From IMG/VR virus record IMGVR_UViG_3300032070_000730: a stretch of DNA of 64,000 nucleotides. One strand, 5' to 3'. Below are positions 13,366 through 32,429 of this stretch, piece by piece (within the stretch, counting starts at the first letter, position 1; each line of letters opens with the position of its first letter). The position numbers and the translations under genes are program-made. Source of the stretch: a virus (Duplodnaviria > Heunggongvirae > Uroviricota > Caudoviricetes). A model generated the notes under the pieces. That model did no database searches, was not told the DNA's origin, and worked only from the letters and a program-made list of their open reading frames with translations.

Positions 13366-14475
13366 ATGGCAAACTTCTTTAACCATCAATTTTTTGCGAA
13401 CCCCTTCTATAAGACTTACGCTACCGATAGAGAGGATTTAGAAACAATGGTTCTTCTTGACAATCATAGGAAAATAAAAACTCAAGTTTTAATGAATATC
13501 AAACAACCGATACGAATCCTATTATGCGGAGAAAGGGGAATCGGCAAGAGTCTTGCCATGCTTTACATAAAAAAGGAAATCGAGGAACAGCACGACCCGA
13601 AAATAATCATATTTGAAAGCACTGGTCTTGACGCTTCTTTTTCTTCATTGCGGGTGTTCATCCAAAAATTAAATTACAAGGTCTATCAAAAGATAGACAT
13701 AGAAGAGATGGAAAAAACAATAATCCATTCTGATTCTGTTTACGAGAAAGCAAAGAAACTTGATGAATATATCGCTGATATTCGAGTGGTTTTGTTTATC
13801 GATGTTCCAGATGCAGAGAGCAGATACAAACATTTTGATACATTGGCAGAGATTTTAGATGTGCTGTTATGCACCAAACAGGTCACGATAATATTTTCAC
13901 TCAACACCGAGCAGATGAAAAAGTTCGGGAAATCTTCATCAATCCTTAACAAATTCAGCGAGATACCTTTGAGGAAACTTGACTTTGAAGAGGCAAAGTC
14001 GATGATAGAAAAAAGACTGCAAAAGTTCAGGGAGAATGGCTCTACTGGGACGCACCCCTTCACCGACGACACGATAATGTTAGTCCAAGACATGACCATC
14101 GGTCTTCCAAGAGCGATTTTAAAATCATGCGAGCGTCTTTTCATTGAATCAGACGAGACGAACAAAACAGAGATAAACAAAGAATTTGCAATGCCGATTC
14201 TTAACAAACATTACGCCGAAGATTTGATAATCATGAACGAATCAGACCTGACCCTTCGCTCCCAGTTTTTCAAGATTTGCTCTGTCCTAAAGAACAAATA
14301 TGGGGGAAAATGCGAGAAAAAAATGACGCTCATAAGAGATATTATGGGTGCAATCAATGTTTCCGAACCATGTGCGATTGACAAATTAAGAAAACTTGAA
14401 GGATGGGGCGTTCTTTCTGTTGCCCGTGATGAAGGAAACATGAAAGCAAAAACAGTTTTTTTAAGGGCGAGGTAA
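13366..14475 (+). CDS. AAA+ ATPase, Orc1/Cdc6-like (putative initiator)
   Basis: Walker A LCGERGIGKS, Walker B LFIDVPD, C-terminal wHTH-like region; adjacent to MCM. Confidence 0.5.
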   Translation: MANFFNHQFFANPFYKTYATDREDLETMVLLDNHRKIKTQVLMNIKQPIRILLCGERGIGKSLAMLYIKKEIEEQHDPKIIIFESTGLDASFSSLRVFIQKLNYKVYQKIDIEEMEKTIIHSDSVYEKAKKLDEYIADIRVVLFIDVPDAESRYKHFDTLAEILDVLLCTKQVTIIFSLNTEQMKKFGKSSSILNKFSEIPLRKLDFEEAKSMIEKRLQKFRENGSTGTHPFTDDTIMLVQDMTIGLPRAILKSCERLFIESDETNKTEINKEFAMPILNKHYAEDLIIMNESDLTLRSQFFKICSVLKNKYGGKCEKKMTLIRDIMGAINVSEPCAIDKLRKLEGWGVLSVARDEGNMKAKTVFLRAR

Positions 14476-17400
14476 ATGCCAGCAGAACTTCTTCCAGTCG
14501 ATGAGTTTGGGACTTTTCTTCGTGATTACTACAGCCTGAACAAGCCGAGACAAAATTTTTGTTGGGACATGAATGAAGAAATACAGACAGCATTTTTACG
14601 GGGAACAAAAAGAATCACTGTCGATTTCAGAGCGATGGAACAATTTGATGAGAAAAATGATACTAACCTTGTCAAGAGTATATTGTCATTGAGTGGTAAT
14701 GAATTAGAGGCATTTATAAAAAAATTAGAGGAAGAACTGAATAATATAGACAGAGTTATGATATTAAGGGAAGGAGAAGAAAAAGAAAATTTAAAAATTG
14801 GTCTAAAAAACCTTCCGATGACCTTGAGAATCAGCGACATACTTGCAGAGAAGCATCAGGGAAAATTGATACAGGTTGAAGGAATAATCCAGAATATAGG
14901 GATACCATTCAGATTCGCAAGAAAAAAAGTCTTTATATGCGACAGATGCACTTACGAATTAAGAAAAATATTTGACATCAATGAGAGAAAGATTCCAGAA
15001 AAGATGTGGTGTCCTTCATGCAGTGCTGAAAGAACTTTTACAGAAAACAAAAGTCAGGAAATCGTTCTCATCACGCAGTTGTTAACACTCGCTGAAGGTG
15101 TTGCCATGTCGAGTTCTATCCCGATTTCTTTAATGGTAGTTCTGTTCGAGGATTTGATTGATAACCCAGACCCAGACAGACGAAAGTTCATCGCTGGAGC
15201 AAAATTAAGAGTCGCAGGGATGTTAAAAGAGATGAAGACCAATTCTCCCGTAAAAAAATTATATCTTGAAGTCCTTCACTGGGATGTAGAAGCAGAAGAC
15301 ATAAAATTCGCTGATTCCGATATTGAGGAATTCAAAAAAATGTCTACAGACAGTGGGTTGATTGATAAATTAATCGCAAGTTTCTCACCCAGCGTGTATG
15401 GATACGAGGATGTAAAACTCGGTATGATACTACAGATAGTTGGCGGAATCACTAAATATTCCGTGAAAGACAAGAAAATGAATCGTGGGACTATCCATAT
15501 ACTGTTAATTGGAGAACCCTCGACCTCGAAATCGACATTATCCTTATTCAATTATAATTATGTCCCGAAGACAAAACTCGCTGTGTGCAGTGAGTTGAGT
15601 TTAGAATATAACGAACCGATTATATTTTCAGAAGATGGTTTAATAAAAATAATGAAAATAGGTGAATTTGTAGAAAACTATTCCAAAAAAAATATAAAAA
15701 TTCCATCTATAAATCCGCACACTTTTAAGAGTGAATGGAAATCTCTAAAAGGGGTTTTTAAACATAAAGATAACAGAGATTTAGTAAAAATACTTCTTGA
15801 AACTGGAAGAAATATAACAATAACACAAGACCATAGCATTTATGTTGCAGATGGGGATGGAATACATACAAAAAAAGGAAATGAAATAGAAAAAGGAGAT
15901 TTTGTAATTATACCAAAAAAAATAGTCGTGCCCCATAAAAAACATAAAAAAGAAATAAATTTGGTCGAGGAACTATTAAAATTGCCGACAGAAAAAATAA
16001 AAGACATCTATCTTCATGGGATTCCAAGAAAAATTCTTAAAAAAATTGGCAGAACATATCAAACTCATCTTGAAAGAGGTTATTTGCCTTTGCTTGAGGC
16101 AAGAAAACTACCAAAAAACATTTTAAGAAAAGCAACAATTTCAACAAAACACATTCCAACATTTATTCCAATTGATGAAAGATTAACGACACTTCTCGGT
16201 TATTATGTTGCCGAAGGATACAATCGTGAAGAAAAAAATCATTATTATAAAATAGAATTTTGTTTTGGAAACAAGGATTCAGAATTGATAAAAAAAACCC
16301 AACAAATTGTAAAGAATCTTTTTAATTTAGAATGCAGAAAACAAAGGGTCTATCAATTGTCAGTCAATGATAAAATCATTACCTATTTTTTCAAGTATAT
16401 CCTTAAAGTAAAACAATATGCAAAAAACAAAGAAATACCAGAAATTATTTTCAATTCACCACTAAAATCACAACTTGCCTTTCTTCAGGCATATATGCAG
16501 GGGGATTATGGTATTTCTGCAAGCAAAAAATTGATTTCAGACATACAATATCTCGCTCTTTTAATGGGAAAAGTCATAACTTCGTATGATACAAAAACAA
16601 AACCTGCTTTAATAAGGGGAAGAAAAATAAATTCGCAAAAAATACATTTTCATATATCACGAGTTCCTTGTCAGGATTTGTTTCAGAAAAAATTAAACGG
16701 ATTGAAAAAAATCAAAAAAATCCCAGATAAACTTTTGCCATTTATATTCGGGAAAACATTTGGATATGAGAATAGAAATATGAGGACTAATTCTAAAAGT
16801 TTGAAAAACAGGGCATTACAAAATGGATTTAATATGACCAAAAAAGAAATGAATTTCTTCAAAAAACTGGAACAATCTGATATTGGCTTTGTTAAAGTTA
16901 GAAAAACAGAAAAAATATTTCATAAAGATAAGTTTGTTTATGATATTTCTGTTGATGATAATGAAAATTTCATTGGGGGGTATGGTGGAATCCTATGTCA
17001 TAACACTGGGGCTGGGCTCGGCGTTGCTATGCTGAAAGACAAAGAAACAGAAAGTTGGTATCTATCTGCTGGAATTCTTCCTTTGAGTCACAAAGGATTG
17101 TGCATTCTTGATGAAATCGATAAAGCAAATCCAGAGGATATAAAATCTTTGGATATTGTCATGAGTTTACAGAAACTTCCTGTCTCAAAGGCAGGAATAA
17201 ACATCACACTTCCTGCTGAAGCGTCTGTCCTCGCTATAGCAAACCCCAAAGGTGCAAGATGGGACGCTTACCGAGACCTAAAAGACCAAGTAAATCTCTC
17301 CGAAGTGACGCTTTCCAGATTTGACTTGAAATTCTGCTTCAAAGACATTCCAAACGAAGAGAAAGACAAAATGATTGCAGAAAGAATCATAGATTCTGAT

Positions 17401-17958
17401 AATGTCGAGACACCTTTCACTTCCGAGTTTCTTGTAAAATATTTAATGTATGCCAAGACCATGAAACCAAAATTAACCGAAGCGACCACGAAAAAACTGA
17501 CAGATTTTTATATGGAGATGAGACAAAAAACCAAAGAGCAATCAGGAATCATGGTCATAACACCGAGACAGTTCGAGGGTATGATTAGAACATCGGAAGC
17601 ATTTGCAAAGTTAAGACTGGCTGAAGAGACAAATGAGTTGGATGCAGATAATTCTATAAAATGTTTCAAGGGGTTTTTGCGTTCATTTGGTTTTGATTAT
17701 GATACAGGTCAACTCGATATTGACAAAGCAGAAGGAAGGACATCTGGTCAGACAAGAAAAGACACGAGAGAAATGACAGAAATATTCGAAGATTTAAGGA
17801 GCATGTTCGGTGAAAGAGTCCCATTGTCAGATTTTACAGAGGCGTGCGAAAAAGAGGGAATACAAAGGGCAGGCGAAAAAATAAAACAAGCCATAAGAGA
17901 AGGATTGTTTTATCAAAAAGTCGGAGAAGAAGAAGATAAATTTATTAGAAAAGTATAA
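14476..17958 (+). CDS. mcm: MCM replicative helicase with inserted intein
   Basis: N-terminal C4 Zn finger CDRC...CPSC; Walker A GEPSTSKS; Walker B CILDEIDK; sensor-1 AIANP; Arg finger SRFDL. Length 1160 aa is explained by an intein in the P-loop region. Confidence 0.85.
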   Translation: MPAELLPVDEFGTFLRDYYSLNKPRQNFCWDMNEEIQTAFLRGTKRITVDFRAMEQFDEKNDTNLVKSILSLSGNELEAFIKKLEEELNNIDRVMILREGEEKENLKIGLKNLPMTLRISDILAEKHQGKLIQVEGIIQNIGIPFRFARKKVFICDRCTYELRKIFDINERKIPEKMWCPSCSAERTFTENKSQEIVLITQLLTLAEGVAMSSSIPISLMVVLFEDLIDNPDPDRRKFIAGAKLRVAGMLKEMKTNSPVKKLYLEVLHWDVEAEDIKFADSDIEEFKKMSTDSGLIDKLIASFSPSVYGYEDVKLGMILQIVGGITKYSVKDKKMNRGTIHILLIGEPSTSKSTLSLFNYNYVPKTKLAVCSELSLEYNEPIIFSEDGLIKIMKIGEFVENYSKKNIKIPSINPHTFKSEWKSLKGVFKHKDNRDLVKILLETGRNITITQDHSIYVADGDGIHTKKGNEIEKGDFVIIPKKIVVPHKKHKKEINLVEELLKLPTEKIKDIYLHGIPRKILKKIGRTYQTHLERGYLPLLEARKLPKNILRKATISTKHIPTFIPIDERLTTLLGYYVAEGYNREEKNHYYKIEFCFGNKDSELIKKTQQIVKNLFNLECRKQRVYQLSVNDKIITYFFKYILKVKQYAKNKEIPEIIFNSPLKSQLAFLQAYMQGDYGISASKKLISDIQYLALLMGKVITSYDTKTKPALIRGRKINSQKIHFHISRVPCQDLFQKKLNGLKKIKKIPDKLLPFIFGKTFGYENRNMRTNSKSLKNRALQNGFNMTKKEMNFFKKLEQSDIGFVKVRKTEKIFHKDKFVYDISVDDNENFIGGYGGILCHNTGAGLGVAMLKDKETESWYLSAGILPLSHKGLCILDEIDKANPEDIKSLDIVMSLQKLPVSKAGINITLPAEASVLAIANPKGARWDAYRDLKDQVNLSEVTLSRFDLKFCFKDIPNEEKDKMIAERIIDSDNVETPFTSEFLVKYLMYAKTMKPKLTEATTKKLTDFYMEMRQKTKEQSGIMVITPRQFEGMIRTSEAFAKLRLAEETNELDADNSIKCFKGFLRSFGFDYDTGQLDIDKAEGRTSGQTRKDTREMTEIFEDLRSMFGERVPLSDFTEACEKEGIQRAGEKIKQAIREGLFYQKVGEEEDKFIRKV
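15586..17004 (+). other. intein (473 aa) with LAGLIDADG homing endonuclease domain inside MCM
   Basis: Begins at the Cys after KTKLAV. LAGLIDADG blocks LLGYYVAEGY and FLQAYMQGDYGIS. Ends ILCHN followed by Thr (+1), then the extein resumes GAGLGVAM. Confidence 0.7.
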
Positions 17959-19033: not shown

Positions 19034-19300
19034 TTAAGATTTCCACTCTTTATCATACGGTTGAGGATATGTTTGTTTTTTCCAACCCCATTGTTTAACA
19101 TGATTTTTTGTCGTTACTTTAATCTCTCTATATTCTTTTTGTGGAATCTTCTCTAATGATTCTACTTTTTCTCGAAGTTCATGTGCCCTTTTTTGTAATT
19201 TCTCTCTTTTAATCCCATGCTTTTTCATCAAATATTGCATATATTTGTATGCTTCTGGGAATTGTTTTGATAATTCAGCCTCTTTGTATGTTTTATGCAT
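19034..19300 (-). CDS. hypothetical protein
   Basis: 88-aa basic ORF. Confidence 0.3.
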   Translation of the reverse strand: MHKTYKEAELSKQFPEAYKYMQYLMKKHGIKREKLQKRAHELREKVESLEKIPQKEYREIKVTTKNHVKQWGWKKQTYPQPYDKEWKS

Positions 19301-19827
19301 TATTCCTCACCAACAACCCAACGTGTCGCCATTCTTGGGAATGTTTCTCTCGCCATTAATTTTGATGGTTCAAGTTCTCCTAACATTTTCAGCCCCTTTC
19401 TTTTAGAAAGTTCTCCTTTTTTGATTCTTCCTTCTATTTCTGACATCTGGGGAGACCAACTTTTTTTTGCATACCATTTTAATACGTCTGGTATTTTCTT
19501 CACTTTACCCATTTTTTCTATGAATCTCTGCCTTTCCTTTTCTGATAATCTGTTGTAAACTTTGTGCGACATTTCATGAACCACATCCCTTGCTGTTTCA
19601 CTGTAATATTCTTTTTTGGGTATTCGCACAAAAGTCTCTTTAGGAATGTTACCTGTCACAAACCCCATTACGGGGTCTTCAGTATATCCTCTTGGGTATA
19701 CCGTGAATTTTCTTGGAAGTCTTATAGCATGAACCATATATAATTTATGTGTGCATAAATATTTAAAAATTTTAGAAATATTTAAATATTTACTCGTCGT
19801 ATTATTAGATAGGTATAAACTATGCAC
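19300..19827 (-). CDS. HExxH zinc metallopeptidase-like protein
   Basis: VVHEMSHKV HExxH motif; divergent from the MVHK array. Confidence 0.4.
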   Translation of the reverse strand: MHSLYLSNNTTSKYLNISKIFKYLCTHKLYMVHAIRLPRKFTVYPRGYTEDPVMGFVTGNIPKETFVRIPKKEYYSETARDVVHEMSHKVYNRLSEKERQRFIEKMGKVKKIPDVLKWYAKKSWSPQMSEIEGRIKKGELSKRKGLKMLGELEPSKLMARETFPRMATRWVVGEE

Positions 19828-20070
19828 AAAATGAAGAAAAATTGTGAAGCCTGTAAGAGATTCGAGGTTCAGTGGGAATTGGTGGATAAAGTTGGAAACG
19901 ATAAACCATACAAAGTATGCTCTAATTGTTTATTGGAATTAGTTGGGCACGCTTTGAACAAAAATCAGTTCAAGAATCTTTTGAAAAGTAGCCACAAGGA
20001 AGGCGAGTTTTTATTACACAGCGACTTTTATGACGAGAAGGGGAACGCTTTACAGTCAGTATTTAAGTGA
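19822..20070 (+). CDS. zinc-ribbon protein (starts MHKMKK)
   Basis: CEACK...CSNC. Confidence 0.35.
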   Translation: MHKMKKNCEACKRFEVQWELVDKVGNDKPYKVCSNCLLELVGHALNKNQFKNLLKSSHKEGEFLLHSDFYDEKGNALQSVFK

Positions 20071-20090
20071 AAGTAAATGGATGTGATTGA

Positions 20091-20396
20091 ATGGTTCATA
20101 AATATACTAAAGCCGAAGGAAAGAAAGAAAAATGGATGAAAGGTTGGGCTGAAGAATTAAACAAAATACAGAATTATCCTTATATCTATGATATGAAGAC
20201 CAAGAAATTTTTCAAAAGATTAAGATGGGGGGATAATGAAACAGTTGAAAAGGGAGAAAGATGCCACGATTGCGGGGTATTGAAGGGTTCTTATCACGGT
20301 GATGGATGCGATATGGAAACAGACCCAAGAACAGGGAGTCAATTACTTGGTTCAGAAGATTTTCATATATCCCAAAGAATAAGGCAAAGGATTTAA
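20091..20396 (+). CDS. MVHK-array protein 1
   Basis: MVHKYTKAEGKK...; 101 aa. Confidence 0.5.
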   Translation: MVHKYTKAEGKKEKWMKGWAEELNKIQNYPYIYDMKTKKFFKRLRWGDNETVEKGERCHDCGVLKGSYHGDGCDMETDPRTGSQLLGSEDFHISQRIRQRI

Positions 20397-20435
20397 ATCT
20401 AACTATAGGATTTAAAATATAGGTAAGGTGAGAAA

Positions 20436-20627
20436 TTGGTTCATAAAAGAATTAAAGACCAGTCGAATAAAATAATAGATGCTATTTTGACAGAAAGAAA
20501 TTTAGTCAGAGATGGTTACTTAATAGTCAACCAAATAGGGGGGACAATTTATGTTTCTTATGATGATTTGTCATCAAAAGAATTGAAAGCACTCTCGGAA
20601 CAAAAAAAATTAAGTGAGGAATCATAA
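20436..20627 (+). CDS. MVHK-array protein 2 (TTG start)
   Basis: TTGGTTCATAAAAGA reads (M)VHKRIKDQ. Confidence 0.45.
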   Translation: MVHKRIKDQSNKIIDAILTERNLVRDGYLIVNQIGGTIYVSYDDLSSKELKALSEQKKLSEES

Positions 20628-20881
20628 TGGTTCACTTAATGAAATTAAAAAAGAATGAAATTCCTGAAGGGTGGAAATTATACAGACATTTTAAAGACGG
20701 TGCAGAATATAGGGGATTAAGAGGTTTCGTTGCAGTTCGCAAGGACGGAAAGGAATATTGGTTCGATTGGGGAATCAAAAAAGGAGATATGTTGGCATCT
20801 TCATTCGTCAAAGATAAGAAAAAAATAAAACCCGAATTGAAGAGAATAATGACAAGAGAATTTCCTATAGAGGCTGATTAA
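20627..20881 (+). CDS. MVHK-array protein 3 (MVHL variant)
   Basis: ATG overlaps the preceding TAA. Confidence 0.5.
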   Translation: MVHLMKLKKNEIPEGWKLYRHFKDGAEYRGLRGFVAVRKDGKEYWFDWGIKKGDMLASSFVKDKKKIKPELKRIMTREFPIEAD

Positions 20882-20883
20882 AT

Positions 20884-21048
20884 ATGGTTCATAAAACAAA
20901 GAGATTCAAAGTGGATTTTAGTGACATGAAAAGCATCACGAAAGCAGAGAAGATGAAAGCGATGCTGGAGAACAAAGGATACAACCTCAAATCGACAAAG
21001 CAGATAGGTTTCGACAAATGGGTTGGCACATACGAGAGGGATGAATGA
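20884..21048 (+). CDS. MVHK-array protein 4 (54 aa, not in ORF track)
   Basis: ATGGTTCATAAAACAAAG reads MVHKTKRFKVDF... Confidence 0.45.
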   Translation: MVHKTKRFKVDFSDMKSITKAEKMKAMLENKGYNLKSTKQIGFDKWVGTYERDE

Positions 21049-21311
21049 TGGTTCATATATTAAAGAAAAAACCAAAGATTGACTTGGATTTTATTGATTA
21101 CATAGCAAAGTGGGGAAGGTGGAACATAGAAAGAGAGGGCGTTGGGAGAACATATACAAGAGGCGACCAGAAGATAAAAATAATGAAAGTTTCGGACGGG
21201 TTTAAAATCGTGTTGTTCAAAAAAGGTTATCCAGTCGATACTGATGTGTCTAAATATAAAAACATGATTTATACACTGGCTGGAGAGGCACTTGCATTTA
21301 GGGTGTGGTAA
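21045..21311 (+). CDS. MVHK-array protein 5 (MMVHILKK)
   Basis: Start ATGATG overlaps the upstream TGA. Confidence 0.5.
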   Translation: MMVHILKKKPKIDLDFIDYIAKWGRWNIEREGVGRTYTRGDQKIKIMKVSDGFKIVLFKKGYPVDTDVSKYKNMIYTLAGEALAFRVW

Positions 21312-21312
21312 A

Positions 21313-21507
21313 ATGGTTCATAAAATTACTCCAAAAACAATACGTTTATATGGAATAAGGATAAACAATAAAAAAATTCTCAAAGATTATCTAAATGCTT
21401 TACTTGGAAATACAAGTAGAAAAATTGAAGATGAAGAAATAGTTAGAATAACCGAGAATGTTTTAAAAGAATTTAAAGAAAGGAGAAAGATTCCAATAAA
21501 GGGATAA
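21313..21507 (+). CDS. MVHK-array protein 6
   Basis: ATG immediately after the upstream TAA; MVHKITPKT. Confidence 0.45.
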   Translation: MVHKITPKTIRLYGIRINNKKILKDYLNALLGNTSRKIEDEEIVRITENVLKEFKERRKIPIKG

Positions 21508-21509
21508 TT

Positions 21510-21833
21510 ATGGTTCATAAATTAAGACCGTATGCGATTTTGACCACTGAAAGTAATAGAGTTGAAGTCAAAGCAAGAACTCTTGCGGAAGCATACAGAA
21601 AAGCAAAAAAAGAATTGATAAAATTCAATAAAGACCCCAATCTGAAAAAAGTCGGTTTTGAAAACCAAGACTTGACTTCAGCATACGAGACTTATGGAAG
21701 AAGTGGAATATCAACGAAGGGGTTCGTAATAACTTCAAAATCAATAGAACTTCATAAAAAACATAATCTTGGAATTTCAAAAAAGCATCCTTTGCAGGTG
21801 CTTTATGGAGATGTGAGAGTGCGTGGTTCATAA
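21510..21833 (+). CDS. MVHK-array protein 7
   Basis: MVHKLRPYA; 107 aa. Confidence 0.5.
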   Translation: MVHKLRPYAILTTESNRVEVKARTLAEAYRKAKKELIKFNKDPNLKKVGFENQDLTSAYETYGRSGISTKGFVITSKSIELHKKHNLGISKKHPLQVLYGDVRVRGS

Positions 21834-22029
21834 AAATGGTCAAATAAAAGAAGAATGGGCAAAATTCATAATTAGCCAAGCCCTATTGGAGATAAGAACA
21901 GAAAAAGATATTCCTAAAGTCATAGAAAAAGTCGAAGGAACTGCACTTGGGAGCAGACCAGACCTGATGAAAAAATTCTTGCGTTTAGTTGAATCAAAAA
22001 GAAATTTGTTAAAACACAAAGGGAGATAA
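21823..22029 (+). CDS. MVHK-array protein 8 (GTG start)
   Basis: GTGGTTCATAAAAAT reads (M)VHKNGQ. Confidence 0.45.
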   Translation: MVHKNGQIKEEWAKFIISQALLEIRTEKDIPKVIEKVEGTALGSRPDLMKKFLRLVESKRNLLKHKGR

Positions 22030-22030
22030 A

Positions 22031-22294
22031 ATGGTTCATAAGATTAAAAAAAATCCAAGCATAAAGAAAGTATTACATTCAAAAGACAAAGATTTAGACA
22101 ACGCATTTGTGAATGATATGTATGTTAAGCAGGGATATAGTGCTTTACAGGTTAACATTGAAGCCAAAAATCAACAGATTACATCTGCTCTTGATAGAAA
22201 AATAAGAAGGGTTGTAAATAAAAACGAAAAGAAATTATTGGATAAATTCGGTGGAAATTATATTGAAATTAACACTTTTGGAATAGTTGATTAA
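22031..22294 (+). CDS. MVHK-array protein 9
   Basis: MVHKIKKNPS. Confidence 0.5.
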   Translation: MVHKIKKNPSIKKVLHSKDKDLDNAFVNDMYVKQGYSALQVNIEAKNQQITSALDRKIRRVVNKNEKKLLDKFGGNYIEINTFGIVD

Positions 22295-22296
22295 TC

Positions 22297-22401
22297 ATGG
22301 TTCATCACAAAAAAAAATATAAAAGATGTGAATATTGCGGTAAAAAATGTTTAACTTCTCCGTGTTTGGAATGCGGGTATAGGAGAGGGGTGTATTCATA
22401 G
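22297..22401 (+). CDS. MVHK-array protein 10 (MVHH; 34-aa zinc ribbon)
   Basis: CEYCGKKC...CLECG. Confidence 0.4.
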   Translation: MVHHKKKYKRCEYCGKKCLTSPCLECGYRRGVYS

Positions 22402-22577
22402 TGGTGCATAAAATCAGGAAGGGGGGGAAAGATTGGAATAAATTGTCTATTGAAGAACAAGATATAATAGCCGATAGATTTTTTAAAGATAGAGATACTT
22501 ATGCATGGACAGAAGATGGTTATCCAACATTACCTTTTAAAAAATATTTAAAACAGGAAGGTTATTATGGTTCATAA
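22401..22577 (+). CDS. MVHK-array protein 11 (GTG start; VVHK)
   Basis: GTGGTGCATAAA overlaps the upstream TAG by 1 nt. Its last codons plus stop (..GGT TCA TAA) overlap the next gene's ATGGTTCATAA start. Confidence 0.4.
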   Translation: MVHKIRKGGKDWNKLSIEEQDIIADRFFKDRDTYAWTEDGYPTLPFKKYLKQEGYYGS

Positions 22578-22695
22578 AAAATTAACTTCAAAAGAAAAGA
22601 TGCAAAGAATAGCAATGGCTACTTTTGCATGGGATAAAGACCAAATGTCAACTAATAATGCTTTGAAGAATGTAAAAAGAGCGTTGAGTGATTAA
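22567..22695 (+). CDS. MVHK-array protein 12 (42 aa)
   Basis: MVHKKLTSKEK. Confidence 0.4.
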   Translation: MVHKKLTSKEKMQRIAMATFAWDKDQMSTNNALKNVKRALSD

Positions 22696-22696
22696 G

Positions 22697-22996
22697 ATGG
22701 TTCATAAAATAAAAAAGAAAACCCCGAAAGACATCGATGTTTTTTGGTATTTTGAAGAAGTTTTAATCAAAAAAGATTTGGATACAGATGATTGGTATAA
22801 AGGAAGAACAAATCAATTGATTTTAAACCTTTTAAATAGTGTAGAAAATGATGTTATTGGGAGTATTGAGGGGGGTGAAGGTATTCCAAGAGCAACTGCA
22901 AAAAAGGCGGTTGATATATTCAGAAAGGGAATAGAAAAAGAATTAAAAGAACACCCAGATTATCCTTATGATGTTACACAAGGAGAGTATGATTAG
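22697..22996 (+). CDS. MVHK-array protein 13
   Basis: MVHKIKKKTPKD; the ORF track's upstream extension is likely spurious. Confidence 0.5.
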   Translation: MVHKIKKKTPKDIDVFWYFEEVLIKKDLDTDDWYKGRTNQLILNLLNSVENDVIGSIEGGEGIPRATAKKAVDIFRKGIEKELKEHPDYPYDVTQGEYD

Positions 22997-22997
22997 T

Positions 22998-23168
22998 ATG
23001 GTTCATAAAAATGAAATAAAGGTAAGAGCAAAAGATTTACTCAAAGCAATAAAAGATAATCTTGAGAGTTGTAAAAAAGCAGGAATAGATACTACAGGTG
23101 GTTATGTCAAACAACAATACATAGCAGACGAGATGGATGAATTGGAACAGGCTATTAAGAGGAAATAA
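22998..23168 (+). CDS. MVHK-array protein 14
   Basis: ATG 2 nt after the upstream TAG; MVHKNEIKV. Confidence 0.45.
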   Translation: MVHKNEIKVRAKDLLKAIKDNLESCKKAGIDTTGGYVKQQYIADEMDELEQAIKRK

Positions 23169-23170
23169 TT

Positions 23171-23359
23171 ATGGTTCATATATTAAAGAAAGGATTTTAT
23201 TGTCCTCACTGCGGAGATTATCTTGGTAAAATCAGTGGAGAACATGATGAATATGATTTGTTGAAAAGACATCTGGAAAACAGAAATTGCAGTTCTAAAG
23301 GAGCGATGAAGATTTATGAAGCAGAGGACAGAGAAAAAATGGGTTTTCATGATGATTGA
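23171..23359 (+). CDS. MVHK-array protein 15 (MVHILKK; zinc ribbon)
   Basis: CPHCGDY...C. Confidence 0.45.
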   Translation: MVHILKKGFYCPHCGDYLGKISGEHDEYDLLKRHLENRNCSSKGAMKIYEAEDREKMGFHDD

Positions 23360-23361
23360 TT

Positions 23362-23553
23362 ATGGTTCATAAAATTGGTATCAAAAAATTGGGAGATTTG
23401 TGGACATTAACTTTGAATGGAAAAGAAGTTACTTGGAGTGATTTTGACCCATTCGGAGATGTTCCAGCAGTATATCAAACAAAAAAAGAAGCAGAAAAGG
23501 ATTTGGAAAGATTGAAGAGTATATTAAAAACAAAAAGTGCTTATAGTGATTGA
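23362..23553 (+). CDS. MVHK-array protein 16
   Basis: Junction TGATTGATTATGGTTCATAAAATTGG. Confidence 0.45.
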   Translation: MVHKIGIKKLGDLWTLTLNGKEVTWSDFDPFGDVPAVYQTKKEAEKDLERLKSILKTKSAYSD

Positions 23554-23555
23554 TT

Positions 23556-23879
23556 ATGGTTCACAGAGTCAAAATAAAACTGGAGAAAAAATACAAGGCT
23601 TGGTTCATAATCAGAGGTGGTGGTTTCTCTGCACAAGAAGGATTGCAAGACATTCTCAAAAACTTTGCGGTTGACAATTACAAAACAGAACCTTCATTCT
23701 TAATGGTTGAAAAGGGGTTCAACAATAAACAGGATGCTTGGAAATGGACAAATATGATAAGTGAAAGACTTTGGAAATTTAGTTGGTATAAGCAGGCAGA
23801 TTGTTCTGTATCAGGCGTTCAGATGAAAGATATTGTTTCTGGTAAAGAAGATTGGTATGATGTAGAAGAGGGAGAATGA
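23556..23879 (+). CDS. MVHK-array protein 17 (MVHR)
   Basis: Junction TGATTGATTATGGTTCACAGA. Confidence 0.45.
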   Translation: MVHRVKIKLEKKYKAWFIIRGGGFSAQEGLQDILKNFAVDNYKTEPSFLMVEKGFNNKQDAWKWTNMISERLWKFSWYKQADCSVSGVQMKDIVSGKEDWYDVEEGE

Positions 23880-24037
23880 TGGTTCACAAAAGAAGTTCAG
23901 AATGCGAATATTGCGGGAAGGAATTGAAAAGAACACAAAAAAGATTTTGCAGTAGTTATTGTGAAATACGAACATCAGAAAAAGCAAGAGAATTGATTAA
24001 AAAAGAGAGCAAAGAATTGGAAGAAGAGGGATGGTAA
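23879..24037 (+). CDS. MVHK-array protein 18 (52-aa zinc ribbon)
   Basis: MVHKRSSECEYCGK...CSSYC. Confidence 0.4.
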   Translation: MVHKRSSECEYCGKELKRTQKRFCSSYCEIRTSEKARELIKKESKELEEEGW

Positions 24038-24238
24038 ATGGTTCATAAAATTGATAGAAGCAAATTAAATATGCTTGAAAGAGATTTGATAGAAGGATTG
24101 ACAGATGAACAGGCTCAAAAAATTATAAATACAGTAAATGCAATCACAAAACATATAAACGATGAAGAGATAATATTTAGAGACGTGTCAGGAACTCCAA
24201 CTATATTAAGGCTTAAAAAATTTGGAGAGCATAGTTGA
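24038..24238 (+). CDS. MVHK-array protein 19
   Basis: MVHKIDRSK. Confidence 0.5.
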   Translation: MVHKIDRSKLNMLERDLIEGLTDEQAQKIINTVNAITKHINDEEIIFRDVSGTPTILRLKKFGEHS

Positions 24239-24244
24239 TTGATT

Positions 24245-24385
24245 ATGGCTCATAAAATTACAAAATGGAAAACTCATAAAAGAATGACCAAATGGGAAAA
24301 GGAATATGGAAGATGTTGCAGACAATGTTATGACCCAGAAAATCCTCATCCCGAATATTGCAGTTGTCTTTGCCACGAGAGGTAA
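24245..24385 (+). CDS. MVHK-array protein 20 (MAHK variant, Cys-rich 46 aa)
   Basis: ATGGCTCATAAAATT; CCRQCYD...CSCLCH. Confidence 0.4.
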   Translation: MAHKITKWKTHKRMTKWEKEYGRCCRQCYDPENPHPEYCSCLCHER

Positions 24386-24390
24386 TGTTT

Positions 24391-24621
24391 ATGGTTCACA
24401 AAATAAAAGGAGTTGTCAAGTATTGGGATTTAGGTAGAGGAAAAGCATCTGGTTTACTAAAAATAGATGCGAAAAATGAGGAAGATTTCAATAACAAACT
24501 TGAAAATGAATTTAAAAAATACCTTATGAGTAGAGATATAAGTTTTGATAATGGAAAAGTATTTGTTGGCGGTTTTAGGCATGTGGGTAATTTTCAATTC
24601 ATAGCAAAAGAGGAAGATTAA
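24391..24621 (+). CDS. MVHK-array protein 21
   Basis: MVHKIKGVVKYW. Confidence 0.45.
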   Translation: MVHKIKGVVKYWDLGRGKASGLLKIDAKNEEDFNNKLENEFKKYLMSRDISFDNGKVFVGGFRHVGNFQFIAKEED

Positions 24622-25026
24622 ATGGTTCATCGGGTCAAGAAATCAAAAGAAAGGTTTGATTTTCCTTTAGACCCAAGTTTAAAAACAAGAATCGCAATTT
24701 ATGTTCCTTCAACTTATGATGGTGTTCATCCTATCGGCAAACAAAAATTTGCAAGAAGAGTCGGCGAGACTCAAAAGTTCCTTAACAATCTATTTGGCGG
24801 TTCGACAAGGATTCGTGGAGAAGGTTCTTATGTCATGAAAGGCGGAAAACTAATAAAAGAAGATGTCGCAGTAGTAGAAGCATTCACAGAACCCAGAAAA
24901 TGGTTTGAAAAAGATTTGGCTGTCAAGAGATGGATTGAGAACAAGAAAAGGAATTGGAAGCAGGAATCTATGTCTTTCGAGTATGAAGCACCACAACATC
25001 CCGCTTCAAGTCTAACATTTGTTTAA
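24622..25026 (+). CDS. MVHK-array protein 22 (MVHR; 134 aa, last of array)
   Basis: MVHRVKKSKERF. Confidence 0.5.
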   Translation: MVHRVKKSKERFDFPLDPSLKTRIAIYVPSTYDGVHPIGKQKFARRVGETQKFLNNLFGGSTRIRGEGSYVMKGGKLIKEDVAVVEAFTEPRKWFEKDLAVKRWIENKKRNWKQESMSFEYEAPQHPASSLTFV

Positions 25027-26051: not shown

Positions 26052-26938
26052 TGGTTATCACCTTTGTTTATTTTTATCAAGGCGATTGTCGCCTTTATGG
26101 TCTGCCAATCATCATTGTCAGACTCAACTAATTCGAGTAAATCCTCAAAAATATCAAACCTGTCAGAATCAAAGTGCTCCTTCAATTTTTTCATGTGTGT
26201 TTTTAATTTTTTGGCGAGGTTGGCTACGATTATCGATGATATTTCTTTCCTGTCATTTTCAGTTAGTAAATAATTCCAAACTCTGAAAGAAGTCTTTAGA
26301 TGATGAAGTTCATTGTCAAATCCACTGTAAGCAAATCTTTCCTCGCTCAATCGAAAGGCATTGCTTTTGATTCCAGAAAGCACACCGCCTTTCAAATTAT
26401 TTTCCATTTCTTGTTTCTGGTCGATTTTTATAAGTTTTTTTAGATTATTGATTCTTTCTTCTGCCCATAATTCTTTTGTCATCATATTTATCAAAATATC
26501 GATTGGAAGTTTTATTCTGCTTGCTCTAAATTTTTTATGTTCCATCAAGTCGATAAACTCGCTTTGATTTTCTTTAGCCAGCACTACAAGGACGCTATCG
26601 AATTCATCGTCGCTTAAAAAATCCAACAATGTCTCCCATTTACGAGAACCATATTGTGTTTTTATCAAACTTTTGGCTATCTCTTCCGCAGTAAAGAAAC
26701 CTTTAGCCCTTAATTTCTTCGTATAATCGATAAAGAATTTTTTCAAATCGCCTTCAAGATAATCGATAATACCGACATACTTTTCCTGAAATTCATCTCT
26801 TTTGACCTTTTTCATATTATCCAAATCAATGCTCACTTTTATTTCTCCGTCTTCAAATTTCAGACCTTCCCTGAAGAATTTTTCTGCAAATTCCATTATT
26901 TCGTTATCACTCATATTTTTCACCCTCTTTGAAATCAA
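26048..26938 (-). CDS. hypothetical alpha-helical protein
   Basis: 296 aa; overlaps neighbours by 4 nt (operon). Confidence 0.3.
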   Translation of the reverse strand: MISKRVKNMSDNEIMEFAEKFFREGLKFEDGEIKVSIDLDNMKKVKRDEFQEKYVGIIDYLEGDLKKFFIDYTKKLRAKGFFTAEEIAKSLIKTQYGSRKWETLLDFLSDDEFDSVLVVLAKENQSEFIDLMEHKKFRASRIKLPIDILINMMTKELWAEERINNLKKLIKIDQKQEMENNLKGGVLSGIKSNAFRLSEERFAYSGFDNELHHLKTSFRVWNYLLTENDRKEISSIIVANLAKKLKTHMKKLKEHFDSDRFDIFEDLLELVESDNDDWQTIKATIALIKINKGDNQ

Positions 26939-28310
26939 GAACTACAACAGCACCAAATTTATTGGCGGTCTTATTGTAGTCTTTATCATAAGTAAGGAAC
27001 AAAGTCTTGAAGTTCCATCTGATTCTTTCTGGGTAGTGTGCTTCCGTATCAGTGAAGATTAACAAGACTTTTGCACGAATCTTTTCTGCAAACACAAAAA
27101 CATCACTCAAGTCAGTCCCGCCATCAGTCCTGTTCTTGAAAATTGTTTTTACCTGATTCCTGTTGAGCCTGTTCAATGGATATTTTCTGCTTATGCCATC
27201 ATCGAAGAACACCATCCATCCATCCATCTTGAAATTCTTTACAAGACCGAGCAAATCACTGCCGAACTTTCTATATTTGTTGTCATCGATACTACCAGAA
27301 CTATCGATTGCTACAACAACTTTGTCCAGATTCGTCTTCAATCTCGCAGGGATTATAAAACCATTTTTTTCAAAACTTGGAGTCGTATAGAATCTTCTAT
27401 GTGGTCTTGAATAAGTAATATCATGACCATTATCTGCTACCTTTTCCGACATGACATTTTTCAGAACACCGTGCCAGTTTCTTTTCTTCTCGATTAATTC
27501 TTCGAGCATCTCAATCAAATCGCCACGACCTTTTCCAGCGATTTTACTTATCATGATTCCTTGAGCGAGCAGACTTTTTACATAATCTTTTAGTTCGCTG
27601 AACCCTTCCTTCTTTGCATTCTGTGAGAATTCTTCGTCTTTGTCGGTTTCAGTATCAGTCAAATCAGGACTATAAGATTTTAATTTCTCTTCAATTTCTT
27701 CATCGCCTTTTCCTTCTCCCTCACCGTTTTCATCTTCTTCTTCGTTCTCATCTGAACCTTTACCTTCGCTTCCTTCATCAGATTCTTCGTCTTTTTCTTC
27801 TTCATCAGGTTCACCAGATTCGCCAGAACCACCACCACTACCGCCGATTTTTTCAGCAGATTTTGTCAGTGCATTGTAGACCTTTTCAGTCTCCAAATCT
27901 TCGACGGAGAATTCAACAAGAAGATTTTTTCTTTGCAGGTTGGTCAAATTTGTCTCTATCTCTATGATGTCCTGTTCCTTCAACATCAGAGAATTGATTA
28001 CGACATCGCCTGAAATATTCCAGTATAACTTGTTTTTGCCTTCAAGTTTGTTAAATCTTTCTTCATGCTTGAGTATGATATGAAGAACCTCGTGTTCAAG
28101 AAGCCTTGTCCTGAATCTTTTAGGATTAAGATTTTCATTTTTCTCGATTTCTTGAATACAAGAATCATTAACAAGAATCACCTTGCCGTTAGTCAATGCT
28201 GGAAACGGCAAGTCCGTTTTCACGATAGGTATGTGTAAAAGAACAAAACCTATCACAGGGTTCTGATTTAGAATCTTCAGTTTGATTCCTTCAGTCCACT
28301 CTACAACCAT
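26907..28310 (-). CDS. vWA-domain protein with N-terminal DUF2201-type putative metallopeptidase domain
   Basis: HEVLHIILKHEERF (HExxH), MIDAS VVAIDSSGSID, long acidic Gly/Glu linker. Confidence 0.6.
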   Translation of the reverse strand: MVVEWTEGIKLKILNQNPVIGFVLLHIPIVKTDLPFPALTNGKVILVNDSCIQEIEKNENLNPKRFRTRLLEHEVLHIILKHEERFNKLEGKNKLYWNISGDVVINSLMLKEQDIIEIETNLTNLQRKNLLVEFSVEDLETEKVYNALTKSAEKIGGSGGGSGESGEPDEEEKDEESDEGSEGKGSDENEEEDENGEGEGKGDEEIEEKLKSYSPDLTDTETDKDEEFSQNAKKEGFSELKDYVKSLLAQGIMISKIAGKGRGDLIEMLEELIEKKRNWHGVLKNVMSEKVADNGHDITYSRPHRRFYTTPSFEKNGFIIPARLKTNLDKVVVAIDSSGSIDDNKYRKFGSDLLGLVKNFKMDGWMVFFDDGISRKYPLNRLNRNQVKTIFKNRTDGGTDLSDVFVFAEKIRAKVLLIFTDTEAHYPERIRWNFKTLFLTYDKDYNKTANKFGAVVVLDFKEGEKYE

Positions 28311-29332
28311 TCGCTCACCTCTGCGACAATCTTGGTCAATTCTTTGTCTTTCAAAAGTTTCTTGAAGACCTTTTCCTTCAAGTCAGCGTCTAACACGATT
28401 CTCTGCAATAACAAATACAAATATTCAAGACCAAGTTCGTTTTTAATAAAATCTACGACCGCAGTTATGTTGTCTTTTTGTTTGACGTATCTGAAAGACT
28501 TTTCAACGAAGACCAGTTTATGAGTCGTGTTGTCCTGCAATTTCTTTTTCTTGCTCAACACTTCATCAACTTCTGGGACTTCTGCGAAAGTTGTCAGATA
28601 GACTGCAAACTTTTCTGCGACCTTGCTTCCCAAAAACCCTTTCAACATGTCGAACAAAAGAACGTTTCCAAAATCTTCCATCTTTATCTGTGCCATCGCC
28701 TTGCTCAAGAGTTCCCAAGTTCTCGGACAAGAGAATTGCTCGTTGACACCTTCTTCCTGATTCATGCAAAGATATTGTGGGTTGTCCATGAGGAAGTTCA
28801 AAATCTTCCCATCTATCTTATTATCTGTTGCCCATTTGCACCAGTCCTTGAAATACCAGTGGTCTTTTGTCAAGTCATTGACATCAATGTTCAATAACCA
28901 GACTCTTGTAATCTCTGCACTGTCCAGCGAAGTTGTGTATGTCCCATGTTCTGCGTTACCTGCAAGAACAATCCAAACAGTGTCTGGAAGAATTATGTCC
29001 TCGAATTTTCTCTCATTAATCAAAGACAGGACTGCATTTCTTGTCTGACCATCTGCACGGTCATACTCATCGAAGAAGATGATTGCATTTCCTTCCTTCA
29101 CTATGTTTTTGAATTGCTTGCTTGTCAAATACTCAATACCATCTTCAGTCAATCTTGGAATAAGAAAGTCCGAAGAACTTCTTCTCGCCAAGTGAATGAA
29201 GAAGCACTGCTTTTTTTCTTCCTTTGCAATTTGCAAGATAACCTGCGTCTTACCAATACCTGACGCACCAAAAATACCGATAGCAGTTCCAGATTTTAGA
29301 ATCTGCTTAATGATTGGTATGTATCTCAACAT
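28301..29332 (-). CDS. MoxR-like AAA+ ATPase
   Basis: Walker A GASGIGKTQ; Walker B/sensor IIFFDEYDRADGQTRNAVLSLI; partner of the vWA protein. Confidence 0.55.
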   Translation of the reverse strand: MLRYIPIIKQILKSGTAIGIFGASGIGKTQVILQIAKEEKKQCFFIHLARRSSSDFLIPRLTEDGIEYLTSKQFKNIVKEGNAIIFFDEYDRADGQTRNAVLSLINERKFEDIILPDTVWIVLAGNAEHGTYTTSLDSAEITRVWLLNIDVNDLTKDHWYFKDWCKWATDNKIDGKILNFLMDNPQYLCMNQEEGVNEQFSCPRTWELLSKAMAQIKMEDFGNVLLFDMLKGFLGSKVAEKFAVYLTTFAEVPEVDEVLSKKKKLQDNTTHKLVFVEKSFRYVKQKDNITAVVDFIKNELGLEYLYLLLQRIVLDADLKEKVFKKLLKDKELTKIVAEVSEWL

Positions 29333-31535: not shown

Positions 31536-32429
31536 CTATTTAGTTGCTGGTATGCTAACAAGCGGTGTCGTTCCAGTTCCGAGCATATACACTGGCATTT
31601 TTCCGTCCCACTTTTCAACCCATCTCAATTGAACTACATCTGGATTTTCTCTCAATGCCTGTCCCTGAATCCTAATTGATTCTGCTTCTGCTGTCGCAAC
31701 TTTTAATTTTGCGTCTGCTTCACCAACTGCCTGTGCAATTTTTCTTTCAGCCTCTAATTTTTCTTTCTTAACTTCAGTCTCTTTCTGCAACATCTCTTGT
31801 TCTGTTTTTTGCTTGGCTTCCACTGCATTCTTTATCTGTTCTGGTATGGCTACATCCCTTATTAAAACTTCTTCAAGGATAAATCCATCTTTGTCGAATT
31901 TCTCAAAAAGATTATCATATATCCCTTCTTCAAGTTTCTCCCTTCCTGCACCATAAAGTTCTGTGACAGCCATCCCACCCGCAACATCCCTTGTCGCTGA
32001 ACGGACTGAAGGTATCACTGTTCCCCAGACATATTCGGTAGTCAAACCTTTTACTACATCGATTGCCTTCTCTGGTTTCACTTTGTAGAACACTGAAACA
32101 TCTACTATAATTTCAAGACCCTCTTTGCTTGGAACTTGCACTGCTATGTCATCGCAATCATCTACTTCTCGCTTGCATTCTTCATAAGTTCCATACAAGT
32201 TAATTGTGTCTCTTGCAGTTTTTATATGATAGACAGTCTGCAAAACAGGTGTTTTAATATGCCAACCGATTCCCATCGTATCTGGAAGGATTCCCTTGCT
32301 TGCATCATATACAACGCCAACTTCTCCAGCATTTATTATTTCTATAGAATCAAATATCAATATCACTGCAACTATCACTGCGACTATGCTAACACACCAT
32401 ATTAAAATGGTTCTTATAGGTTCTTCCAT
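31536..32429 (-). CDS. SPFH/band-7 (stomatin/prohibitin-like) membrane protein
   Basis: N-terminal TM; SPFH core (VVYDASKG...IIVDVSVFYKV); C-terminal Ala/Glu/Lys coiled coil. Confidence 0.65.
   Translation of the reverse strand: MEEPIRTILIWCVSIVAVIVAVILIFDSIEIINAGEVGVVYDASKGILPDTMGIGWHIKTPVLQTVYHIKTARDTINLYGTYEECKREVDDCDDIAVQVPSKEGLEIIVDVSVFYKVKPEKAIDVVKGLTTEYVWGTVIPSVRSATRDVAGGMAVTELYGAGREKLEEGIYDNLFEKFDKDGFILEEVLIRDVAIPEQIKNAVEAKQKTEQEMLQKETEVKKEKLEAERKIAQAVGEADAKLKVATAEAESIRIQGQALRENPDVVQLRWVEKWDGKMPVYMLGTGTTPLVSIPATK

Follow-up and report, generated by a model that had tools for sequence, protein, structure and literature searches.

Twenty-two consecutive small genes at positions 20091-25026 of the 64-kb window analysed here (the whole stretch of 64,000 nucleotides (nt) from IMG/VR record IMGVR_UViG_3300032070_000730, which is part of an uncultivated archaeal mobile element, virus or plasmid) open with one short sequence that lies on the start codon, encodes Met-Val-His-Lys or a variant of it, and is called the box below. 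It is proposed, tentatively and with chances that we put a little short of even, that this box is a composite: judged from its sequence, it would be a selected N-terminal handle with the mature form X-His-Lys and at the same time a direct repeat for modular shuffling of the genes, a process that would in turn homogenise it.

The array and its start box

The 22 co-directional open reading frames (ORFs) of the original prediction are all present on the + strand where it placed them, far beyond what chance would give. They encode proteins of 34-134 amino acids (aa), and all open with [A/G/T]TG-G(T/C)N-CAY, after which most have AAA or AAG and then more A-rich codons for basic residues. The start codon is ATG in 19 of them, GTG in two (21823 and 22401) and TTG in one (20436); codon 2 is GTT in 20, with GTG and GCT once each. 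The window has 26 copies of the 8-mer TGGTTCAY, 21 of them in the array on the + strand; dinucleotide-preserving shuffles have 5.3 ± 2.0, and none of 100 reaches 26. The ORFs that begin at two copies elsewhere, 44984 (+) and 63250 (-), are of just 13 and 29 aa, and these copies are taken as chance occurrences.

Stop-to-start gaps calculated from the coordinates range from -11 to +6 nt, except for one gap of 39 nt between the first and second genes. The overlap in which the upstream stop falls inside the next box (GGT TCA TAA) had been reported once and is in fact found twice, at 21823 and 22567. A G-rich Shine-Dalgarno (SD)-like signal (GGTGAT or GAGG) at -12 to -7 lies within the 3' end of the preceding gene, and positions outside this signal and the box carry little information. 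That the protein bodies are unrelated is borne out by an all-against-all blastp comparison, which gave no relationship among the 22; the zinc ribbons, predicted to be four, number four to five by our count (Cys-rich, zinc-ribbon-like products of 22297, 23171, 23879, 24245 and perhaps 20091). Pfam recognised no family for any of the 22 proteins.

The block extends beyond the 22 ORFs, as three flanking genes (19822 on the + strand, 19737 and 19300 on the - strand) carry MHK or MVHA variants of the tag. MHK starts of ORFs are found in the 64 kb at 19822 (+; ATGCACAAA) and 19300 (-; ATGCATAAA) only, both directly flanking the array. Two more ATGCAYAAR sites lead into ORFs of just 22 aa, and the box stands at the start of no other window gene. 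On this sequence pattern the tagged block is delimited as 19034-25026, some 25 genes in a row that form two divergent operons on either side of an AT-rich promoter region, and these operons look like early or accessory operons of a mobile element. Its features, with each boxed gene of the array numbered as a cassette, are the following.

19034..19300, - strand: 88-aa gene, start ATGCATAAA (MHK), TAATG overlap with the upstream ORF, SD-like GGTGAGGA before the start
19300..19737, - strand: 145-aa ORFan (the 'HExxH' gene), start ATGGTTCATGCT (MVHA)
19738..19821: AT-rich divergent promoter region (84 bp) separating the two tagged operons
19756-19792: near-perfect AT-rich palindrome, 17-nt arms, 94% complementary, 3-nt spacer
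19822..20070, + strand: first gene of the + operon, 82 aa, Cys-rich, start ATGCACAAA (MHK; the box minus its Val codon)
20091..20396, + strand: cassette 1, 101 aa, MVHK (ATGGTTCATAAA); a 33%-identical homologue elsewhere in the L008 array
20436..20627, + strand: cassette 2, 63 aa, TTG start (TTGGTTCATAAA); the 39-nt gap before it contains the TATA-like TTTAAAATATA
20627..20881, + strand: cassette 3, 84 aa, MVHL; its L124 orthologue lies between unrelated neighbours
20884..21048, + strand: cassette 4, 54 aa, MVHK
21048..21311, + strand: cassette 5, 87 aa, MVHI; 21 identical nt from the ATG in common with cassette 15
21313..21507, + strand: cassette 6, 64 aa, MVHK
21510..21833, + strand: cassette 7, 107 aa, MVHK; family with 16 relatives
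21823..22029, + strand: cassette 8, 68 aa, GTG start; 11-nt overlap, upstream stop TAA within the box
22031..22294, + strand: cassette 9, 87 aa, MVHK; another upstream cassette in L012, breakpoint 22027
22297..22401, + strand: cassette 10, 34 aa, MVHH, CxxC...CxxC zinc ribbon
22401..22577, + strand: cassette 11, 58 aa, GTGGTGCATAAA; left breakpoint (22414) of the segment replaced in L008-L012
22567..22695, + strand: cassette 12, 42 aa, MVHK; 11-nt overlap, upstream stop within the box
22697..22996, + strand: cassette 13, 99 aa, MVHK
22998..23168, + strand: cassette 14, 56 aa, MVHK; L182 orthologue (86% aa identity) with a different upstream neighbour
23171..23359, + strand: cassette 15, 62 aa, MVHI, CPHC motif
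23362..23553, + strand: cassette 16, 63 aa, MVHK
23556..23879, + strand: cassette 17, 107 aa, MVHR; right breakpoint (23555) of the replaced segment
23879..24037, + strand: cassette 18, 52 aa, MVHK, zinc ribbon; box wobble CAC versus CAT between the window and L001
24038..24238, + strand: cassette 19, 66 aa, MVHK; first of the three cassettes missing in L008-L012
24245..24385, + strand: cassette 20, 46 aa, MAHK (GCT), Cys-rich; the L105 orthologue also has GCT, with unrelated neighbours
24391..24621, + strand: cassette 21, 76 aa, MVHK; in L003 directly after the end of a cassette-17-like gene
24622..25026, + strand: cassette 22, 134 aa, MVHR, distant DUF3574-like; last gene of the array

The palindrome at 19756-19792 could be a bidirectional TATA region or an operator. 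Within cassette 17 an out-of-frame box-like TTGGTTCATAAT at 23600 (GCTTGGTTCATAA, 23598-23610) lies 44 nt past the gene's own box and may be a relic junction or a chance occurrence.

Cassette exchange at the box

Comparison of the window with contigs 98-99% identical to it reveals the loss, replacement and rejoining of whole cassettes. Contigs L008-L012 do not have window positions 24047-24618 (three cassettes), the flanks overlapping in the 12-nt repeat TAAATGGTTCAT, and in place of 22415-23554 (six cassettes) they have a single 92-aa cassette, a distant homologue of window cassette 1; homology stops at 22414, just past a box, and resumes at 23555, 1 nt ahead of another. The end of a cassette-17-like gene is joined straight to cassette 21 in L003, a different cassette stands upstream of 22031 in L012, and cassette 22 has three different upstream neighbours among related contigs. 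The breakpoints at 22414, 23555, 24046/24619, 24391 and 22027 lie inside the box or at most 4 nt away from it.

Eight cassette families are common to diverged arrays, in which their neighbours are unrelated. In cross-array alignments the similarity runs from the ATG of the box through the stop codon and spacer and ends just past the next ATGGTTCA; the bodies of the common cassettes are up to 83% identical, and the flanks are at the level of unrelated sequence. The variant box GTGGTGCAT (22401) travels with the upstream cassette and the GCT box remains attached to cassette 20 in the window as well as in L105, and these variants, found on opposite sides, indicate that the crossover point is not fixed and can fall on either side of codon 2. 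Identity continues beyond the box at some junctions (for 21 nt from the ATG in the 21048/23171 pair, and upstream in three junctions that share TGATTGATT); compared with a column-shuffle null, such extended identity is in modest excess (P = 0.03 and P = 0.0025).

One option in the original prediction was an array of cassettes assembled by recombination at a conserved junction. The deletions, replacements and translocations at the box uphold this option in its general form, but neither a recombinase nor an attC-like site was found. Pfam scans covered the main window ORFs from 130 aa upwards (some 45 out of 51, the others being few and for the most part overlapping) in the 64 kb of a contig longer than 100 kb (the cassette 22 protein is recorded on a contig of 104,673 bp), and revealed no integrase or resolvase, only TnpB and an IscB-like RRXRR/HNH protein. 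Inverted repeats flanking the cassettes or binding-site symmetry around the box were likewise not found in the window, and the genes flanking the array are ORFans. With an unfixed crossover and no recombinase or attC-like site, short-homology recombination fits better than a dedicated site-specific system.

Conservation at the codon and residue levels

Codon statistics were compiled for 81 non-redundant box genes from 10 loci. In the box, Val is encoded by GTT in 73 of 78 genes (94%) versus 35% GTT inside the same genes (P = 1e-27), and the preference is also seen in the subset found by protein homology alone (39/43; P = 4e-14). The His codons (CAT/CAC, 54/27) and Lys codons (AAA/AAG, 48/15) are used nearly as they are inside the genes, and their wobble positions therefore look neutral. 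At +12, 79 of the 81 genes have a purine. Taken alone, these statistics suggest a nucleotide-level element, ATGGTTCA.

Codon 2 may also be GCT or GCA (Ala), ACG (Thr, giving MTHK at L150:1180) or TCG (Ser, in the in-frame ATGTCGCACAAA at 19572); orthologous cassettes differ by GCA versus GTT at this codon, and it is missing altogether (MHK) at 19822, 19300 and L105:2680. The genes at L150:1180 and L105:2680 are in-array, coupled genes, and all codon-2 variants keep His-Lys in frame. The residue at position 2 is Val, Ala, Thr or Ser only, or is absent, and an unbiased search for a start codon followed by NNN-CAY gave no Ile, Leu, Phe, Asp or Gly there. According to the methionine aminopeptidase rule, Val, Ala, Thr and Ser at position 2 permit removal of the initiator Met and His does not; applying this rule to the residues found, we infer a mature N-terminus X-His-Lys/Arg in every case. 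His-Lys is read here as being under protein-level selection, with GTT kept near fixation by what would be continual exchange within the box.

The original prediction had also offered an N-terminal His motif of the amino-terminal Cu/Ni-binding (ATCUN) type. The data are compatible with a His-based motif, and the variants that keep His-Lys (MAHK, MTHK, MSHK and MHK) strengthen this option; in them the mature His is predicted at position 2 (X-His-Lys, GHK-like) instead of the strict ATCUN position 3.

RNA folding of the 81 start regions gave no conserved structure, and their accessibility was not different from that of shuffles. Three nucleic-acid candidates were considered and rejected: a hairpin TTATG-GTT-CATAA, in whose arms the bases vary (T is found at -2 in 53% and at -1 in 43%) and whose pairing is broken by CAC in one third of the genes; pairing of GGUUC with the h45 loop of 16S rRNA, set aside because those adenines are known to be dimethylated; and per-gene promoters, as no TATA-like signal is conserved (at most 0.34 bit at -30 to -20).

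The box and the protein families

A search of 1.8 billion representative proteins gave 16 relatives of cassette 7. MVHK is present only in the one at 73% identity, which starts MVHKLKRPYAIL; the others start MVTRELRPYAIL, MKQKLRTYAIL, MAKGKLRPYAIL, MVKERTYAIL and similarly (MKQK, MAKGK, MVKER, MVTR). Relatives of cassette 22 at 99% and 82% identity carry the box (the latter with a GTG start), and its DUF3574-like homologues at 41% identity or less have other starts (MEKLEQ, MKKLENK and so on), the bacterial ones with signal peptides. The box substitutes 3-4 residues right before the conserved core (MVHKLRPYAIL versus MKQKLRTYAIL in cassette 7). Since the distant homologues of cassettes 7 and 22 do without it, the box is not intrinsic to the protein families. 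It is confined to one element lineage. The original prediction had counted relatives without MVHK as evidence against itself; such relatives exist only among distant homologues in other element lineages, not among the closer ones (73-82% identity).

Distribution of box arrays

Among the matches listed, box arrays are seen only in metagenomic contigs. Near-identical variants of the window element are L001-L003, L008-L012 and L206; a diverged relative (L013/L014) has 17 box genes in about 18 consecutive genes, and a motif-pair scan of metagenomes gave at least four further arrays, L105 (16 box genes in 4,960 bp), L124, L150 and L182. The G+C content of L150 (contig Ga0315297_10000108, 41.6 kb) is 44% versus 32-34% in the other arrays, yet it has the same ATGGTTCAYAAR box (2,685 bp seen). 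A scan of reference genomes, one per species for 185,579 species, gave 66 matches against about 67 expected by chance (a rough estimate) and no array; the motif-pair scan of IMG/VR gave one chance match, and by BLAST the array matched nothing in phage or plasmid collections.

Small-gene arrays of other lineages from the same habitats, L015 (41 genes), L208 (13) and L210 (5), served as controls; their SD-stop-start junctions are just as compact, but they have no common N-terminus. The box is wholly absent from L015 and L210, and L208 has a single MVHR cassette among its 13 genes. This lone cassette (L208:3309) suggests cassette traffic between array types. L208 and positions 4500-19358 of L015, both from sediment-type metagenomes, have a uniform SD-stop-start junction of their own, AAGGT[G/T][A/T]TTTGAT ATG.

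Proposed role of the box

Each gene is an independent one-gene cassette with its own start box, [A/G/T]TG GTT CAY AAR plus A-rich codons, and with its SD signal in the preceding cassette. We propose that the box is kept because the encoded product is selected: Met is presumably removed before a small residue, leaving X-His-Lys/Arg and a basic tail. This would put a common handle on all proteins made from this promoter region, which could be read by a modifying or recognition factor or act as a Cu/Ni site of the GHK/ATCUN type. As a 9-13-nt direct repeat at each gene boundary, the box would at the same time allow short-homology recombination to remove, insert or swap whole genes, each crossover giving an in-frame, SD-equipped and translationally coupled gene; such recombination would homogenise the box nucleotides and could thereby explain the near-constant GTT. 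It is possible, though rather less than probable, that this amounts to a recombinase-independent cassette system, with its site in the first 3-4 codons, that would supply immediate-early proteins with a start, SD coupling and an X-His-Lys handle for metal binding or enzyme recognition. To our knowledge, no described system combines a junction in coding sequence with a shared functional N-terminus.

Several observations weigh against the combination of handle and repeat. At locus L005, whose right-hand flank is 82% identical, only three of 10 genes have the box, so that the tag is dispensable for residence or expression at this locus, and about 5% of in-array genes are without the tag (MEKEK..., MEEYLK...). 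The MSHK and VVHE starts are internal to one ORF and possibly unused. Purines at +12 are found in 16 of 18 non-Lys codons versus 57% at third positions, which hints at a nucleotide-level constraint; a fixed GTT with drifting CAY and AAR is also what direct selection on the nucleic acid would give, homogenisation being a step that we infer. Breakpoint precision is partly forced, as a viable whole-gene exchange between abutting genes must break near a start codon. Finally, N-terminal processing, modification, metal loading and recognition are all deduced from the tag, and no partner protein was identified.

Among the untagged genes at the array position of L005, the one at 1340-1546 encodes a histone-fold protein (CBFD_NFYB_HMF). 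L105 1880-2023, one of the few untagged genes within an array, encodes MEKEKIVVPCEVYSRVVGYYRPVSSWNEGKQEEFKDRKEF, which we take to resemble the C-terminal glycyl-radical segment of the anaerobic ribonucleotide reductase NrdD.

Alternative explanations

Selection at the RNA level is the main and a serious rival of the peptide handle. AUG-GUU-CAY-AAR on the start codon would then be an operator or enhancer through which a protein or RNA factor of the element or the host switches all these early genes jointly on or off, with the MVHK peptide as a by-product and the shuffling as a side effect; we regard this as a real possibility, if not a probable one. It would account for a box placed exactly on the start codon in every gene, for a GTT wobble kept against codon usage (P = 4e-14) and for the purine enrichment among non-Lys codons, and the restriction of +9 to Y only and of +12 to R only fits G.U-tolerant pairing or loose recognition by a protein. 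The box also heads the divergent operon, as a regulon mark would more than an array junction, and lineage-specific asymmetric repeats at the starts of unrelated genes have a precedent (PMC3203893). The variants are harder to accommodate: with codon 2 changed to ACG, TCG or GCA or deleted, CAY-AAR still stays in frame, and an RNA site would have to tolerate 0- and 3-nt spacing. Nor did the 81 start regions show conserved structure or an accessibility unlike shuffles; the window has no Rfam match, and neither a complementary RNA nor a candidate RNA-binding regulator was identified.

An integron-like system, in which a dedicated recombinase uses the box as core site and moves circular one-gene cassettes, only box cassettes being mobilised, has a slim chance in our estimate. 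One direct repeat per gene boundary, single-gene modules in many contexts, the high indel turnover among 98-99% identical variants and the lone MVHR cassette in the otherwise untagged L208 all agree with it. The Pfam-scanned ORFs include no tyrosine or serine recombinase, although one could lie outside the window on the longer contig; the box has no inverted repeats or symmetry and the crossover is not fixed, and the retention of His-Lys when codon 2 changes, as well as the boxes on the divergent strand, would be left unexplained.

The original prediction offered as one candidate a cleavable propeptide or capsid-targeting tag, modelled on the internal proteins of T4 and processed by a divergently encoded HExxH protease. 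The sharing of an N-terminus by many unrelated small proteins and the HEMSH-containing ORF adjoining the array speak for it; we nevertheless consider it very improbable. The gene in question had been given a start at 19827, and the ATG at 19737 is better (145 aa, MVHA), in agreement with gene callers. Its HEMSH is spelled by GTG GTT CAT GAA ATG TCG CAC AAA (19572-19595, - strand), that is, by two tandem box-like starts in frame, GTGGTTCATGAA at 19584 (with the SD-like AAGGGAT before it) and ATGTCGCACAAA at 19572 (MSHK), and the ORF, which itself begins MVHA, may be a cassette fusion or contain internal initiation sites. It has no homologue in 5.8 billion proteins, no Pfam match at E <0.01 and no PDB sequence match, its AlphaFold model is unusable (pLDDT 46.6), and no zincin peptidase family was recognisable around the HExxH in the Pfam, PDB sequence and homologue searches. 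These searches gave no evidence that the 145-aa protein is a peptidase or that it co-occurs with the arrays. Furthermore, neither a capsid gene nor one for a prohead protease was recognised in the 64 kb, and a tag that swaps only 3-4 residues before the conserved core of at least one family leaves no room for a propeptide.

A small chance, roughly a tenth part of the whole, is reserved for explanations not thought of. An ordinary initiation context, codon bias, paralogy or chance can practically be dismissed: small genes of related elements do often have basic, A-rich N-termini (MKKK, MSKK), but TGGTTCAY is in clustered excess, the protein bodies are unrelated, homologues elsewhere lack the box, and the general initiation context that the original prediction had named as a possible undoing is contradicted by its occurrence in no other window gene, none in L015 or L210 and one in L208.

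The window and its element

Apart from the array, the window encodes an MCM helicase with an intein, a Cdc6-like ATPase, PCNA, a PolB-exonuclease fragment and an XPB-like helicase, together with an S-layer-like protein, glycosyltransferases, radical-SAM enzymes, a MoxR ATPase with a DUF2201/VWA partner, TnpB and the IscB-like RRXRR protein. No tRNA gene was found in it. Identity of the MCM to its counterparts in archaeal viruses and plasmids does not exceed 37%, too little for a host or family to be assigned, and PCNA had no match among phages. The element may be a virus or a plasmid; searches of the window, including PHROGs, recognised no capsid and no terminase, and no prohead protease either. 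The neighbouring DUF2201/VWA protein, used as an anchor, retrieved no related loci from IMG/VR or reference genomes.

The MCM helicase gene (14476-17958) is broken by an intein with a LAGLIDADG domain, and the gene for the Cdc6-like ATPase (13366-14475) is directly upstream. TnpB (OrfB_IS605 plus a Cas12f-like TNB domain) is encoded at 11311-12534 on the + strand and the IscB-like RRXRR/HNH protein at 32414-33640 on the - strand; compared with L001, a near-identical contig, the RRXRR gene is on the opposite side of the S-layer-like gene and so has moved recently. The MoxR-type AAA+ ATPase and DUF2201 (putative metallopeptidase N-domain plus VWA-like) pair, at 26907-29332 on the - strand, is convergent with the array near its 3' end and is kept beside it in the contigs that reach this flank (L001, L002, L005, L006, L008 and L206). 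PCNA is encoded at 51871-52731, and a LAGLIDADG-domain ORF immediately followed by the PolB-type 3'-5' exonuclease fragment (53857-55333) may be a split or intein-disrupted family B polymerase.

Relation to known systems

A full-text literature search on an MVHK-type tag and box returned no relevant paper and no such arrangement. As in integrons, co-directional, promoterless one-gene cassettes are expressed from one end, their content is variable and the same cassette occurs in different contexts. In contrast to integrons, the repeat is at the 5' end and inside the ORF, and the crossover is not fixed. No IntI-type integrase is present beside the array among the Pfam-scanned ORFs of the window, and the gaps of -11 to +6 nt at the 3' ends of the cassettes contain no attC imperfect inverted repeats (about 57-141 bp).

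ATCUN motifs (NH2-X-X-His, as in DAHK of albumin) and X-His sites (such as the peptide GHK) are N-terminal Cu/Ni sites known from individual proteins or peptides and not as an operon-wide tag. By sequence, MVHK would formally be ATCUN if Met is retained, and V/A/T/S-His-Lys or Met-His-Lys would formally be GHK-type; all box genes have the residues needed, and the register (His at position 3 or 2) depends on Met excision. In T4 a handful of unrelated proteins share an N-terminal capsid-targeting sequence, some 10 residues or longer, that the prohead protease cuts off; unlike this cleaved extension, the box tag comprises only 3-4 residues before the core. T4 RegA represses many early mRNAs via sites that overlap the start codon, are poorly conserved and do not fix the encoded residues. 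If the box acts on RNA, its likeness to RegA lies in the start-codon-overlapping site on many early genes.

In the hyperplastic regions of T4-type phages, modular shuffling is mediated by promoter early stem-loop (PeSL) elements (Arbiol et al. 2010, PMC2839356; Comeau et al. 2014, PMC4122927). The box arrays likewise consist of small, mostly ORFan, non-essential genes, with a motif repeated at the boundaries that is the crossover point between near-identical genomes, and the indels and replacements map to this motif as they do for PeSLs. They differ in that a PeSL is an intergenic promoter plus stem-loop terminator; here there is almost no intergenic space, the 9-13-nt repeat is on the start codon and the N-terminus is common, and a conserved unit of promoter and stem-loop was not found in the array (no intergenic space, TATA-like signal or structure above shuffles). 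The host here is archaeal.

The start-associated sequences (SAS/ESAS) of Cluster K mycobacteriophages are 13-bp GGGATAGGAGCCC repeats that precede start codons by a few bp (Pope et al. 2011, PMC3203893). They are similar to the box in being lineage-specific, asymmetric, orientation-locked repeats at the starts of unrelated genes, absent from the host and other phages and with a suspected role in translation (PMC3203893). The SAS overlaps the SD, marks 11-19 scattered genes, encodes nothing and is not tied to cassette exchange (PMC3203893), whereas the box has a different sequence and sits on and downstream of the start codon; the comparison is by analogy only. Motif-bounded cassette shuffling is thus already known, and what is unusual here is a junction in coding sequence that imposes a common N-terminus.

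Significance

If the proposed dual role of the box is correct, it would represent a very compact form of modular gene exchange, in which a 9-13-nt repeat on the start codon ensures that a crossover yields an expressible, coupled gene, and it would provide a testable model for the gain and loss of ORFan 'dark matter' genes in archaeal mobile elements. The shared N-terminus means that one antibody, affinity reagent or N-terminomics pattern could pick out a whole early proteome. A tag that turned out to serve recognition, modification or metal binding would be a protein mark of a new type in archaea, shared across a whole virus; if it is on RNA that the box acts, archaea would offer a clear example of an initiation signal specific to a virus. 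The box can also be used as a search key for more arrays, and among the small proteins that these encode there may be anti-defence or host-takeover factors.

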